Under the pieces are notes generated by a model, which was not told the origin of the DNA, searched no databases, and saw nothing but the letters and a program-made list of their open reading frames with translations. From a virus: a stretch of 64,000 bases of DNA. Both the position numbers and the translations under genes were made by a program. This document shows, piece by piece, positions 19,736 to 46,475 of this stretch. The number at the start of each line of letters is the position of its first letter. Positions within the stretch are counted from its first letter, which is position 1. Where the stretch lies: IMG/VR virus record IMGVR_UViG_3300027896_000001, positions 96,001 to 160,000 of that record. One strand, given 5' to 3'.

Positions 19736-20257
19736 ATGTTGGAAATTCTTACCCCACTTAATAAGTGCGAACGCGTATCTCGGCAGATCGCCCCTGCAAC
19801 ATTTGTTGCAAAACCGGGCGAATGGGCTCAGGTTGAGTCCGACGGTTCACTGATCAATGTAGAGGCCGGCGTAAATGCAAAAATCAACAAACTCGTTATT
19901 GGCAGTGCATCATCGAACCAATACGAGTCTCATGACGTTGAGGTGGGGCGCATCACCTCGATGGAAAGCCATGGAATCCGCTGCAAGGTCGATACTGTTG
20001 GTTTTCACGATGTTGTTTCCCAGGGCGACGAACTCGTCGTTTCGAGCGCGTCGGATTCCCTTGGCAAACTGATGTCGGTCAACAGGGCAGCTTCGGGAAC
20101 ATACGAGGTTGTTGCAAGGGCAGAAGAAGTGAATCTCACAACCGGCTATCTCATTTTCAGAACCGTGTCTCCGTATATGAAGGCCGTTTCTCACGCAAGT
20201 ACGAGCGCGAGTGCTTCGGCCAGCCCGTCGGCAAGTGTGTCGGCGAGTCCTTCCTAG
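19736..20257 (+). CDS. Capsid decoration/cement protein with C-terminal Ser-rich tail
   Basis: Immediately upstream of MCP; beta-rich; ends [21 protein letters not shown]; paralog of 22754-23470. Confidence 0.6.
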   Translation: MLEILTPLNKCERVSRQIAPATFVAKPGEWAQVESDGSLINVEAGVNAKINKLVIGSASSNQYESHDVEVGRITSMESHGIRCKVDTVGFHDVVSQGDELVVSSASDSLGKLMSVNRAASGTYEVVARAEEVNLTTGYLIFRTVSPYMKAVSHASTSASASASPSASVSASPS

Positions 20258-20358
20258 TCAATAAAAAGGTTGGGGCCGTACCTTTAAATCGGCCCACGTT
20301 TAACTGAACGAAATCAGTAAAACTAAAAGTTTCTAAACCAAATTAAAAGGAGCCAAGT

Positions 20359-21387
20359 ATGTTGCGAGATCTTTCTGCGGTCCAGTTTAACGAGGCCTTC
20401 CTCGAAAAAATTGCGACCATTGAAGGGCAGGCGCAACTTACAGAGGCCGGTCGTCAATACGTCAAGACCGAGCTTCTGGAAGCTGCGTTTTCGCGCGCGA
20501 TAATTCCCCAGGAACCAGTCACGACATCTGATTGTCAGAGGAACATCAACGACAATTCCCTGTACATCATTCGCGACATCGAACCCGAGGCAGCGGCCGT
20601 CGGCGTCGACAACCTGGGTGAGCCCAATGGCAAATACGTGAAGGGTGAAAGGTACATCATCCCGATCGTGAACTTTGCCACAAACCGGTTCCAGATCACC
20701 GTGGAAGACCTTCGTGCGTACCAGTACAAAATCACGAAGCGTATCGAGGACAAATCGGTGCCAGTCCTCGAAAAATTGGAAGACAAGTTCTTCCTTCGTC
20801 TCGTCGGCGCCGCTGTTGGTGTTGCCTCTGCCGGTTCCCAAAAAGCCGTTGCATACGCGGCCGGCGACAACACTCTGGAAATTTCGACACGCGACATCGT
20901 CAAGATCAAGAACACTCTCGCGTCTGGCATCAATGGCAGCGATGCAAAGCGCAAAGAGGTCGGCTGCATTCTCATGTGCCAGGAAGCATTCGAAACCGCA
21001 GTCATTCTGCCGAGTGCCGGCGATGACTTCGGTAAGGACCGTGTTCTGAATGGTATCTCTTCGGATACCCTCTTCGGAACAAAGGTCGTTCGGACAATCA
21101 AGAGCGATGTTCTGCCGCGCGGCCACATGTGGGCCTTCACGACCCCGGACTTTTTCGGCCACAATTTCGCATTGGGCGATCCCAATTTCGAAATCAAGTC
21201 GAACTTCGGGCTCATCGAATGGCAGACGAAGGAATCAATCGGAATGGGTATCGGGAACGCCCTTTCCGCAGCGCTTATGACTCTCAAGGGTTCCGTGAAT
21301 CCGGGCGGGTCGACCCCTCTCGTGGTTACATCAGACGGAACAGTTCCTCAGGCAATTCTGGATTACTACGCTTCTCTAAAGGTGTAA
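20359..21387 (+). CDS. Major capsid protein
   Basis: 342 aa, strong SD, strongly biased C-ending codons, follows protease/scaffold/decoration, followed by a terminator; N-terminal LEKIA. Confidence 0.75.
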   Translation: MLRDLSAVQFNEAFLEKIATIEGQAQLTEAGRQYVKTELLEAAFSRAIIPQEPVTTSDCQRNINDNSLYIIRDIEPEAAAVGVDNLGEPNGKYVKGERYIIPIVNFATNRFQITVEDLRAYQYKITKRIEDKSVPVLEKLEDKFFLRLVGAAVGVASAGSQKAVAYAAGDNTLEISTRDIVKIKNTLASGINGSDAKRKEVGCILMCQEAFETAVILPSAGDDFGKDRVLNGISSDTLFGTKVVRTIKSDVLPRGHMWAFTTPDFFGHNFALGDPNFEIKSNFGLIEWQTKESIGMGIGNALSAALMTLKGSVNPGGSTPLVVTSDGTVPQAILDYYASLKV

Positions 21388-43700: not shown

Positions 43701-43724
43701 TTAATCTCATAAAGGAGAACAGAT

Positions 43725-46475
43725 ATGGCGTCAACTACATATCAAGGCCCAAATGTTTCTGTGCGACAGGAGTTCGTAACGTCGCCTGGAGCAGTAGCCA
43801 TTGAAAGTTTGCCATCTGTTGCGGTTGCAACAGCCTATGACGTTTTCAAGAAAAAATCCCTCGGCTCGACATATGGAATCAAGCCGACTCGTATCCTTCC
43901 ATGGGGCACCACCAACAAAGTCATTTACAGCAAAGACCAGGCGGGCCTCAAAGTCCTCAACATGTATCCTCCAAAAGCATACGCGAACAGTCAGTTCGGC
44001 GTTCTCGATCTTGATGTTCCTGCCGGCGATATTTCAGAAGATGGAATGTCGCTTGACGTCGATGATATGTATATCGTTCCAGGAACAGAAAAAGTCGCCG
44101 GATCATGCCAAGCCATTATACCTTACTATCAAGCCCATCTCGAGACAAAAATATTCGAAACAGATCTCCGTACGGTTGTTGTTACCAATGGTTCAGTTGT
44201 CACGGCGCAGATAAAGCCAGGCCAAAAAGTATTCATCAAAATCACTTCAACATGGACACTTGTTGGAACGGTAGGGTCTGTCGGAACCGATGAAACAAAA
44301 ATCACTCTTGCAGCCCCTTATACTGCGGCAGTAACCAACGGAACGGATATAGCTGTCGGTGCGGCCAATTCAGATTTTATCGATATTCCCAATACCTTAT
44401 ACGATAGTTCTGCAAATTTCGTTTCAGCAAAAGTGGCTGTCGGAGACATTATTTCCGTTTCCAGTCTTGCAATCTCCGGCTCGGTCGAAAACCCAATTCT
44501 TGCCACCGTGATCGCTATTATAAACAAAAACACTCTCAGGTTTAATACCGACACGGCGACCAGCGATCAAGACGTCAATCCGGGAAAAATCGACTATAAT
44601 TTCCTCACGTACAAAACATTCACGAACGCCATAGGAACAACCGCCCAGGTTTATTCTTATTCGATTAACCGGCTCCTTGGCTTTTCTCAGAGCTATGGAG
44701 TGAAATTTCTCAACAGCACAAATGTCAGTTCTTCTTCTTCCGCAAGTTCTTCAATAAGCGCAAGTCCGTCTGGCACAACCAGCGGAAGTGTAAGCCCGAG
44801 TTCAACCCAAAGCCCTAGCTCAAGCCAAAGTTCAAGTCCCAGCCCAAGCGGGGAGGACTTTGTTGATCCAGGCGTGCAGGTGACAAGGCTTACCGATAAT
44901 TCTTTCACAGTCCATAAATCAGGTTTTCCTGTAATTAAAAAAGGAGACGTTTTCGTTATCGCGGAATCAAACGTTCCTGAAAACGATAACGAAAGAGAAA
45001 TGGACAATCTTCGTCCCTATGTCGTGGATACGGTCGTTACAGTGGGTAATCTTTTAAAGATCACCACAATCGACGTTATCTACAAATCCGGAACCGGGAT
45101 GACTACGGAAGAGAAATTTGAAACAGACGATTTCATCCAGATATGGTCTCCAAAAGTCGAGACCGAAATCGTGGCTGATTTCAGAGCTGTTCGCGCCGAA
45201 GAACACGGTGTAACCCATCGAATCACAAGCCTGAAAGATATTTTTGATGCCTGGGTAAATCCACTGGAAACTTCAATCGATCCCCGTAACGAACTCGCTT
45301 TCATGATGTCAATAATTTTTTCGCGTTCCGGCGGGAAAGTGTGCTATGGACACAATGTCGACTCCACAGCTTCAAACAAAGCCGCTGAATATGCGGCAGC
45401 GCTTGAAGACCTTAAGCTCTTTGATGTTTATAGCCACGCGTTCGGGACGACCGATGCTGGCGTCAACGGAATCATCGGAGATTACTGCGATGAACAAGCC
45501 GACCCGTACGAAGGGCATGAGAGAATCGGACTCATCTGCTATGACCTCGAAGACCTTTATCTCATGGGAACCGACAGCGGTTCGATAAACGAAGATACCG
45601 GCGTCATCACAACTACCGGCGCATGCGATCTGATCGCAGCCGGTGTCACGATGAATGATAAGGTCGAAATATTCGGAGACGATGGTTTAATCTATACAGC
45701 AACAATACTTGAAACACCTGTCGCTCCAGAAATTCCAGGAAATCCATTTACGGTCGTTACGGATTTCAGGAACGATACGGCAGTATCAAGTCCGACCTTT
45801 AAATTCCAAAGCGGCAGGAAAGATGATCAGGCCGTAAGAGCGGGAAACATCAAATATGGAAACAGGCGTGTGGGCATGGTATTCCCCGGATGGTTCTATG
45901 CCGAATTCAATGGAGAGCGTATGTCTCTTCCTCCATATTTCATCACAGCGACAATAGCTGGAATGGATTCGGGAATCATAGCATCCCAGTCTTTTACCAA
46001 TATGCCTTTCAGTATTCCCGGCCTGACCAACATCGAGTTGAACACAAGCACTTATTTCCGGAAAGCTCAACTCGATCAAATAGGCGGCGGCGGTGTCGAC
46101 ATCATGATACAAGACGCCACTGTTACTCCTGCAATCAAGTCGAGGCACGATCTGACCACGAATATGGACGCTGTCCAACTTCGGGAAAGGTCAATCACAA
46201 AACAGGCGGATGTTGCGGCAAAGACCATCAGGTCTGCGCTATCTCCGTATGTCGGGCGTTATAACATTAACGACTCAAATCTTTTTAGGTTCCTTGGGCA
46301 GGTATGCGCCATCGTCTGCGGGAAACTTGTAAAAGATGGAATCCTTTCAAAACTTGTCGTTACAAAAATAGCCCGAGACGAAGTCATTGACGACAAAGTC
46401 AATTTCTTCCTGGAAGCCACGGCTTACATAGCGGGTAATTATTACGACGTCACATTACTGGTGAAAACCCGTTAA
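43725..46475 (+). CDS. Tail sheath protein with Ser-rich insertion
   Basis: N-terminal Y..P.V.V.QE; C-terminal SFTN..., L..IGGGGV, RHDLTT...RE.SI.K..D...K; followed by a tube-sized gene. Confidence 0.75.
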   Translation: MASTTYQGPNVSVRQEFVTSPGAVAIESLPSVAVATAYDVFKKKSLGSTYGIKPTRILPWGTTNKVIYSKDQAGLKVLNMYPPKAYANSQFGVLDLDVPAGDISEDGMSLDVDDMYIVPGTEKVAGSCQAIIPYYQAHLETKIFETDLRTVVVTNGSVVTAQIKPGQKVFIKITSTWTLVGTVGSVGTDETKITLAAPYTAAVTNGTDIAVGAANSDFIDIPNTLYDSSANFVSAKVAVGDIISVSSLAISGSVENPILATVIAIINKNTLRFNTDTATSDQDVNPGKIDYNFLTYKTFTNAIGTTAQVYSYSINRLLGFSQSYGVKFLNSTNVSSSSSASSSISASPSGTTSGSVSPSSTQSPSSSQSSSPSPSGEDFVDPGVQVTRLTDNSFTVHKSGFPVIKKGDVFVIAESNVPENDNEREMDNLRPYVVDTVVTVGNLLKITTIDVIYKSGTGMTTEEKFETDDFIQIWSPKVETEIVADFRAVRAEEHGVTHRITSLKDIFDAWVNPLETSIDPRNELAFMMSIIFSRSGGKVCYGHNVDSTASNKAAEYAAALEDLKLFDVYSHAFGTTDAGVNGIIGDYCDEQADPYEGHERIGLICYDLEDLYLMGTDSGSINEDTGVITTTGACDLIAAGVTMNDKVEIFGDDGLIYTATILETPVAPEIPGNPFTVVTDFRNDTAVSSPTFKFQSGRKDDQAVRAGNIKYGNRRVGMVFPGWFYAEFNGERMSLPPYFITATIAGMDSGIIASQSFTNMPFSIPGLTNIELNTSTYFRKAQLDQIGGGGVDIMIQDATVTPAIKSRHDLTTNMDAVQLRERSITKQADVAAKTIRSALSPYVGRYNINDSNLFRFLGQVCAIVCGKLVKDGILSKLVVTKIARDEVIDDKVNFFLEATAYIAGNYYDVTLLVKTR

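Follow-up and report, generated by a model that had tools for sequence, protein, structure and literature searches.

The window analysed here is a 64,000-nucleotide stretch of viral DNA, bases 96,001–160,000 of a single 174,649-bp contig (IMG/VR record IMGVR_UViG_3300027896_000001) that carries direct terminal repeats and has a completeness rating of 100%. Between window positions 19,736 and 46,475, genes for virion proteins that bear Ser/Pro or Thr/Pro tracts, hereafter called tags, surround a cluster of glycosyltransferase (GT) and methyltransferase (MTase) genes, two of which encode proteins most similar to the polypeptide N-acetylgalactosaminyltransferases (ppGalNAc-Ts; family GT27). The original prediction, made from the DNA letters, took this arrangement for a virion O-glycosylation system in which modular tags are coated by the co-encoded GTs, and placed tags on both decoration paralogs, the neck protein, the protein starting at 33528, the sheath and a 2623-aa protein. 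Analysis of the translations revealed such tracts on all of them. The tagged proteins, named below by gene start, are:

19736..20257, + strand: predicted decoration (cement-type) protein paralog A, 173 aa, directly upstream of the major capsid protein (MCP) gene
22754..23470, + strand: predicted decoration protein paralog B, 238 aa, whose core aligns with paralog A
25659..27230, + strand: neck-fibre protein, 523 aa, matching gp82N
33480..34010, + strand: small protein with a Thr/Pro tract near its C-terminus, likely start the ATG at 33528
34042..41913, + strand: 2623-aa fibre-like protein with two Gly-rich blocks, a short propeller-like region and a 120-aa acidic tail at the end
43725..46475, + strand: predicted tail sheath, 916 aa, assigned from ESM Atlas features and structure and from homology to Arash gp236
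44700..44864, + strand: Ser-rich insertion in the sheath (aa 326–380), located by alignment

Most of the tags form tails at a terminus or are inserted in loops, and do not link domains. Paralog A ends in a Ser/Ala/Pro tag of 24 aa, while paralog B carries a Ser/Pro/Gly/Ala repeat over its N-terminal ~85 aa, the end opposite to that used by paralog A and by the tagged paralogs of relatives. The neck protein has a Thr/Pro plus Ser/Pro tract at aa 23–97, and the 33528 protein, which has a homologue at the equivalent place in one related locus (L051), bears a TTPAPTT-type tract at aa 136–160 of the listed open reading frame (ORF) 33480–34010. Tags occupy aa 283–473 and 969–2505 of the 2623-aa protein, in which strict (Ser-X)n runs, with A, P, I, V or E as X, total 1,720 aa; the longest extends for 1,534 aa without a phase break. 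This protein contains 916 Ser, at exactly 50 per 100 residues over aa 1001–2500, and has a weak Pfam match to Gly_rich_2. A 1,537-aa ORF on the − strand (36912–41525) is a by-product of the Ser-X repeat and not a gene. At the DNA level the tags share at most ~69% identity with each other and their Ser codons are a mix of the TCN and AGY boxes; they are not copies of one DNA repeat, and their composition is therefore kept at the protein level. The tags are thus beyond chance, are not a DNA-repeat artefact and reflect protein-level selection.

As far as the tools show, the tagged proteins are parts of the virion. Foldseek searches with an AlphaFold2 model of the decoration core (predicted local distance difference test score, pLDDT, 90.5) gave as top matches only small accessory chains from reconstructions of HK97-type phage capsids, namely those of Sf11, XM1, Pam3 (8hdt_G, template-modelling score, TM, 0.64), T1, the TW1 capsid-stabilizing protein and HFTV1; probabilities were 0.93–1.0 and TM scores 0.43–0.64, but E-values were only 0.009–0.08. 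Orthologues of paralog A in tag-less relatives end at 151–157 aa. Residues 372–516 of the neck protein match the neck fibre gp82N of the Anabaena myophage A-1(L) (PDB 8keg, 7.2e-13), and its homologues in GT-less relatives are 458–492 aa long and have no tract. The sheath found no match in Pfam or, by sequence, in the PDB. Its assignment is based on ESM Atlas features (Phage_sheath_1/1C clusters, 0.91–0.92), on an ESM Atlas structural match to a sheath C-domain cluster (TM 0.86 over 339 aa) and on homology of its C-terminal half to the virion protein gp236 of the myovirus Arash. Alignment with three homologues from relatives without GT27-like genes revealed the Ser tract as a clean 51-column insertion. 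In the sheath of L051 (L051:15467-18076; L029/L051 lineage), poly-Thr is inserted ~100 residues further downstream than the window's Ser-rich site, and the two insertions are independent events in two GT-bearing lineages. PHROGs and Pfam provided nothing useful on most virion proteins, and PDB sequence searches with the sheath, the MCP and the decoration protein were empty or insignificant.

The seven GT-like and three MTase genes of the original prediction were all recovered, nine of them as Pfam matches above curated cut-offs and the tenth, 29377, by BLASTP. They lie at 23.5–33.5 kb of the window, and the MTases are dependent on S-adenosylmethionine (SAM):

23555..24319, + strand: GT2 glycosyltransferase with a DSH motif ('GT2b'); Pfam PF00535, 3.3e-11
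24312..25043, + strand: GT2 glycosyltransferase with a DDD motif; Pfam PF00535, 5.7e-13
27242..28123, + strand: GT27-like single-domain GT with a DAH motif; Pfam PF00535, 8.5e-16
28110..28772, + strand: SAM methyltransferase, Methyltransf_11; Pfam 2.4e-11, no curated NCBIfam equivalog reached
28769..29386, + strand: SAM methyltransferase, Methyltransf_24, conserved cassette core; Pfam 2.1e-16
29377..30072, + strand: GT-A-like protein; BLASTP to residues 309–447 of 31918 (32% identity, 7e-23), no Pfam match
30065..30598, + strand: SAM methyltransferase, Methyltransf_24; Pfam 6.2e-6, 27.5 bits (cut-off 26.3)
30535..31236, + strand: DXD-type GT, Gly_transf_sug / Caps_synth; Pfam 1.1e-13
31240..31902, + strand: TOD1/MUCI70-like GT-like protein; Pfam 6.5e-7, 29.4 bits (cut-off 21.4)
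31918..33531, + strand: two-domain GT of 537 aa with a GT27-like N-domain and a GT-A-like C-domain with an EHD motif; Pfam GT2

The seven GT genes carry eight GT domains, all of GT-A types. The BLASTP alignment indicates that 29377 is homologous to the second domain of 31918 and stands alone, and both fall in one hidden Markov model and BLAST cluster. None of the GTs and MTases has a hydrophobic (transmembrane) segment, and hence they are soluble; the highest 19-residue Kyte–Doolittle mean is 1.10 for 31918 and 0.72 for 27242.

By sequence, 27242 and the N-domain of 31918 are closest to the ppGalNAc-Ts and keep their metal-binding residues. A PDB sequence search with 31918 gave ppGalNAc-Ts as the best 9 of 17 matches (14 of 17 by entry name; best 1.5e-7), and with a family profile of 47 sequences the top 13 matches were all ppGalNAc-Ts (best 2.7e-10). 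The best matches of 27242 were GalNAc-T12 and Toxoplasma GalNAc-T3, over residues 1–258 (1.4e-4). The predicted fold of the 31918 N-domain is also nearest to GT27: the best 42 Foldseek matches of the AlphaFold2 model (pLDDT 92) were all ppGalNAc-Ts (E ~1e-15), and VIA-align, which is independent of Foldseek, gave Z 27.1 for GalNAc-T1 (8v9q; root-mean-square deviation 2.5 Å, 264 aa) and 25.2 for Toxoplasma GalNAc-T3 (8uhv), but only ~18 or less for other GT-A enzymes. The DAHC motif of 31918 aligns with the DAHC of ppGalNAc-T1, and H244 (HLFR) with the third His (HVFR). These residues (D82, H84 and H244) and four Cys do not vary among 47 homologues. A diverged but recognisable Gal/GalNAc-T motif region (W216-G-Q-x-G-x-E...W228...G231-G232) is spanned by the stretch that scores best against ppGalNAc-Ts, residues 163–276.

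Both phage enzymes share the GT-A fold, the DxH motif and the third His with eukaryotic GT27 enzymes such as human GalNAc-T2, mouse GalNAc-T1 and Toxoplasma GalNAc-T3, and their presumed acceptors are likewise Ser/Thr in Pro-containing disordered tracts, as in mucins. They differ in being encoded by a bacteriophage, in having just 17–23% identity to the eukaryotic proteins and in lacking a membrane anchor and a lumenal location. A four-Cys zinc ribbon (rubredoxin-like) that is absent from the animal enzymes is inserted in the catalytic domain of 31918 (aa 117–139, window 32266–32334). The structural matches of residues 304–535 of 31918 are nucleotide-sugar-transferase folds and second domains of two-domain GTs, so that a second GT-A-like domain stands where the eukaryotic lectin domain would be; no ricin-B-type lectin match was found in 31918 with Pfam, and 27242 consists of the catalytic domain only. 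27242 is a candidate initiating enzyme. Transfer of GalNAc from UDP-GalNAc to Ser/Thr is predicted, and is indicated indirectly by the co-variation with tracts described below and by a short-chain dehydrogenase/reductase (SDR)-type nucleotide-sugar epimerase/dehydratase whose PDB relatives include WbgU and WbpP. The epimerase gene is distant from the cluster (genome 2564–3514, − strand), although a homologue adjoins the 537-aa GT in the related loci L048 and L051. We found no description in the literature of GT27-like enzymes in phages, or of this system.

Comparison with 40 related viral loci, collected with the neck gene and the MCP as anchors, and with loci on unrelated phage backbones revealed that tags and GTs are gained and lost together. 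Tags in relatives without GTs, which would have spoken against the original prediction, were found in no locus with enough sequence to judge. The capsid gene that defines this family is:

20359..21387, + strand: MCP, untagged; tblastn to the annotated Arash MCP gp226, 9e-22

It shares 71–88% identity across 34 of the related loci. Every MCP-family locus with GT27-like genes (the window's clade, the L029 clade and L016) bears Ser/Pro tags on extra decoration paralogs, the neck protein or the giant protein, whereas 22 tag-less loci hold no GT27-like gene. In the complete genomes of three tag-less relatives (208, 186 and 164 kb), no GT2 match was found at any position, compared with four above cut-off in the window genome. 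Tagged extra decoration paralogs occur in GT-bearing lineages only, and the tags have been inserted independently, at the C- or the N-terminus of decoration paralogs and in different sheath loops in the window and L051.

The core of the cluster is constant (27242, 28769, 29377 and 31918), while its periphery varies even between close relatives. 27242 is conserved in all tag-bearing relatives, and 28769 has homologues in all GT27-bearing relatives and in unrelated backbones. Homologues of 31240 are present in some relatives; among the relatives examined, 30535 was found in the window genome only and no homologue of 24312 was found. In place of 23555, 24312 and 30535, L001 carries a GT with a β4-galactosyltransferase-type C-terminal domain (L001:12186-12905) and, also within the cluster, a 553-aa protein in which a radical SAM domain is fused to a Glyco_tranf_2_4 domain (L001:17930-19591). 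Within the MCP family, 23555-type GTs occur only in lineages that also bear Thr/Pro tags (three lineages), which could suggest that Thr/Pro tags go with this type of GT, but two short unrelated contigs that hold a 23555-type GT without visible tags speak against this weak association. Other chemistries are seen elsewhere in the family. The complete 181-kb genome L035 (L035:9033-21024) has Pro-poor poly-Ser tags with E, N and Q on one decoration paralog and two neck proteins; GT27-like genes are absent from the whole genome, and MptE-like, GT8-like and MTase genes follow its neck genes, a pattern that hints at tag chemistry matched to GT family. In L021-L024 and L027 (for example L022:4443-9899), another cluster lies between the decoration and MCP genes and consists of two FkbM-type MTases, two Methyltransf_11 MTases and a weak GT1-like gene. 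Pfam was uninformative on the extra small genes of the tag-less relatives.

Beyond this family, a metagenomic protein set yielded at least 5,674 homologues of the 537-aa GT (E<=1e-5), a lower bound because scoring was confined to the 8,000 candidates with the most shared words. The best 120 are 40–80% identical (mostly ~60%) and mostly full-length. All ten viral loci found with this GT carry a protein with a Ser-X tract of 100–1,250 residues within a few kb, and five of the ten are on contigs with almost no further genes in common with the window genome. Among species-representative metagenome-assembled genomes (MAGs), Ser-X tracts lie near the GT in 24 of 39 loci. The MAGs are labelled with many different phyla, and at least one of the hits is a phage contig that had been binned into a MAG (L055 = L050); no host is therefore inferred. 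No tblastn match at E<=1e-5 was obtained in 50,697 deposited phage genomes.

The window's terminase (10665), prohead-protease-like gene (16216), MCP gene (20359) and the genes downstream are all on the + strand, and the GT/MTase genes sit within this late structural operon. The only cultured relatives, all very distant, are the Salmonella myovirus Arash, three Vibrio phages and Bacillus phage G. Scans for sigma-70 promoters and terminators were at chance level with the sole exception of a GC-rich hairpin followed by a T run at 21427–21443, directly 3′ of the MCP gene, which is the only convincing terminator-like site within 18–38 kb and could serve as an attenuator that follows the most abundant transcript. 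The GC content is 0.32 at window 28000–32000, over GT/MTase genes and the most AT-rich part, and 0.50–0.64 in the tag-coding stretches, a contrast that fits an acquired cassette and composition-driven tags. One further gene lies in the region:

24989..25609, + strand: conserved core gene of the head-neck block, not a GT; no Pfam or PHROG match

Its homologues, in 23 loci, make it a core gene of relatives both with and without GTs. Outside the window, a second glycan-related block (genome 31305–49534; locus L042:1305-19534) begins with an eighth GT, of type Glyco_tranf_2_4 (31305–32309), and also holds a GH16 hydrolase, a Thr/Pro-tagged 287-aa protein and two β-helix proteins, one of 409 aa that ends in a 73-aa Ser/Pro tail and one of 2267 aa. 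This block is probably a spike/fibre module.

To our knowledge, phage particles are usually regarded as bare protein, and a few mycobacteriophages are the only phages shown to glycosylate themselves. The original prediction drew an analogy to the serine-rich repeat adhesins (serine-rich repeat proteins, SRRPs), of which the acceptor half stands and the enzymatic half does not. Like GspB, Fap1, SraP and PsrP, the 2623-aa protein has a very long strict Ser-X repeat (X = A, V, E and others in SRRPs), and SRRPs are glycosylated in the cytoplasm by co-encoded soluble GTs, as is proposed for the phage protein. Apart from a weak sequence match to GalT1 of the Fap1 pathway, however, the enzymes differ: no match to PF00534 (GT4, GtfA/GtfB-type, GT-B fold) was found anywhere in the complete genome. 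No Pfam match to accessory Sec components (SecA2/SecY2/Asp) was found among the ~50 proteins scanned, and no genome-wide search was aimed at these. Pro is a regular part of the phage repeat, which in a short and portable form also tags unrelated virion proteins. The nearer enzymatic analogy is eukaryotic mucin-type initiation by GT27, to judge from the sequence and fold comparisons.

The chlorovirus PBCV-1 also encodes GTs that glycosylate its capsid, and one of its enzymes joins GT and methyltransferase domains. Its glycans are atypical N-linked structures on the folded major capsid protein of a eukaryotic virus, and it has no repeat tags. Cytoplasmic glycosylation of the virus's own coat with sugar methylation, as in PBCV-1, is what we propose here, but the GT families differ and only the phage system has repeat tags. 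Similar in purpose are the mycobacteriophages Che8, Corndog and Myrna, which according to PMC12363180 and PMC11256854 (both citing Freeman et al. 2023) glycosylate their virions with their own GTs; there, too, phage-encoded GTs would give the phage's own structural proteins a glycan coat. The 537-aa GT is not a close relative of the mycobacteriophage enzymes, since the deposited phage genomes gave no match to it. Compared with the mycobacteriophage systems, the present gene set is far larger (eight GT genes, including the one outside the window, and three MTases), has long dedicated acceptor repeats and extends to neck, sheath and fibres as putative targets. By analogy, the system would combine a mucin-like enzyme, an SRRP-like acceptor and a mycobacteriophage-like purpose.

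We consider it probable that the tags are glycosylated by the GT/MTase cluster, in a cytoplasmic O-glycosylation of the phage's own particle that resembles the mucin type. That the phage coats its particle with methylated sugars is drawn from the presence of tags on virion proteins and of GalNAc-T-like enzymes among the genes for those proteins. The original interpretation is supported by the virion identity of the tagged proteins, the solubility of the GTs, their likeness to GT27 and the co-variation. A mechanism is proposed where, late in infection, 27242 and/or the N-domain of 31918 attach the first sugar, from a UDP-sugar donor made by host or phage, to Ser/Thr of disordered tracts. These acceptors would be grafted onto termini or surface loops of the decoration proteins, the neck fibre, the sheath, a β-helix spike-like protein and the giant fibre. 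The glycan could then be extended by the second domain of 31918, by 29377, by the peripheral GTs 23555, 24312, 30535 and 31240 and by the GT elsewhere in the genome, and the three MTases would cap sugar hydroxyls. No export step would be needed because particles are freed by lysis. The product would be a particle with a dense, hydrated, methylated glycan brush, for which protection, colloidal stability and adhesion are candidate roles.

Several observations weigh against this proposal. Glycosylation is here predicted from genes and models. The three MTases belong to generic families, and polysaccharide polymerases such as K4CP and PmHS2 share with 31918 the layout of two GT-A domains. Fifteen of the 39 MAG loci have no tract within the flank. 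The MTase/GT1-like cluster of L021-L024 and L027 is accompanied by no Ser/Thr tags on visible virion proteins, so GT clusters in the MCP family are not always paired with tags. On the MCP tree, the tag/GT pattern amounts to only two changes, with one to two phylogenetically independent pairs, and thus carries no statistical weight alone; the raw 10-versus-11 contig table was not used as a statistic because an independent-pairs test cannot reach significance.

The similarity of 31918 to glycosaminoglycan polymerases is also among the points that favour a different product, whereby the GT/MTase cluster makes or alters a non-protein glycan (a host envelope polysaccharide, lipopolysaccharide or teichoic acid, or a free polymer synthesized by the two-domain 31918) and the tracts are unglycosylated flexible bristles or spacers. 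Phage GT2 enzymes commonly act on host surface glycans, and the weak matches of 23555 are to TarP (its best PDB sequence match, 4.5e-5) and a GtrB-like PHROG. NCBIfam, where no equivalog was reached above cut-off, gave weak matches to polysaccharide GTs, and the GH16 hydrolase and the epimerase show that the phage handles polysaccharide chemistry. We nevertheless regard this as unlikely. The cluster proteins have no membrane segment, and the genes scanned included no flippase, polymerase or GT-C; the N-domain of 31918 is 7–9 Z units nearer to peptide-modifying GT27 than to any polysaccharide GT. The genes belong to the late virion operon, where no convincing terminator separates them, and the joint gain and loss of tags and GTs would be left unexplained.

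A narrower version of protein glycosylation would make the giant Ser-X fibre the only dedicated substrate, as an SRRP-like glycoprotein, with the short tags of decoration, neck and sheath proteins as incidental, unmodified low-complexity insertions. What constantly accompanies the 537-aa GT on unrelated backbones is indeed a long Ser-X protein and not a tagged capsid protein, and L016 has GTs and a giant repeat protein yet an untagged decoration protein. The short tags, however, match the giant's repeat in composition and are confined to GT-bearing genomes, where they occur on several proteins at independently chosen sites, and the tagged extra decoration paralogs exist only in GT-bearing lineages; restriction to the giant fibre is therefore unlikely. 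A T4-like glycosylation of phage DNA against restriction, a target that the original prediction had named, is very improbable even though large phages often hypermodify their DNA and GTs take part in such pathways, because the complete genome has no thymidylate-synthase-type (ThyA-type) hydroxymethylase and the enzymes are GT-A/GT2 and GT27-like, unlike the GT-B DNA glucosyltransferases, while the position of the genes in the virion operon and their link to Ser-X tracts would be unexplained.

Glycosylation of the virion tags by the cluster could be one instance of a portable 'glyco-tag' system common to uncultured phages, a generalization for which we consider the case evenly balanced. A GT27-like initiator, of a kind not known from cultured phages, would read a Ser-X/Pro code, and perhaps a separate Thr/Pro code, that can be grafted onto any exposed terminus or loop, such that head, neck, sheath, spikes and a dedicated 1,500-residue fibre bear a methylated mucin-like brush. 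The GT family would suit the tag chemistry, as in the pairing of poly-Ser with MptE/GT8-like enzymes in L035, and the whole would be a viral cytoplasmic counterpart of mucin-type O-glycosylation. The presumed acceptor here is a short tag that is defined by its composition and occurs on many different virion parts, and the tag-less, GT-less relatives with equivalent virion proteins provide natural controls within the phage family. If the proposal is true, it would provide a soluble, tag-directed, prokaryote-compatible O-glycosylation tool and would bear on the origin of GT27 enzymes. Metagenomes contain thousands of members of the GT27-like family and deposited phage genomes contain none; sugar-coating would then be a trait of a large class of phages in the environment and would bear on their adsorption, stability, grazing and immune recognition.

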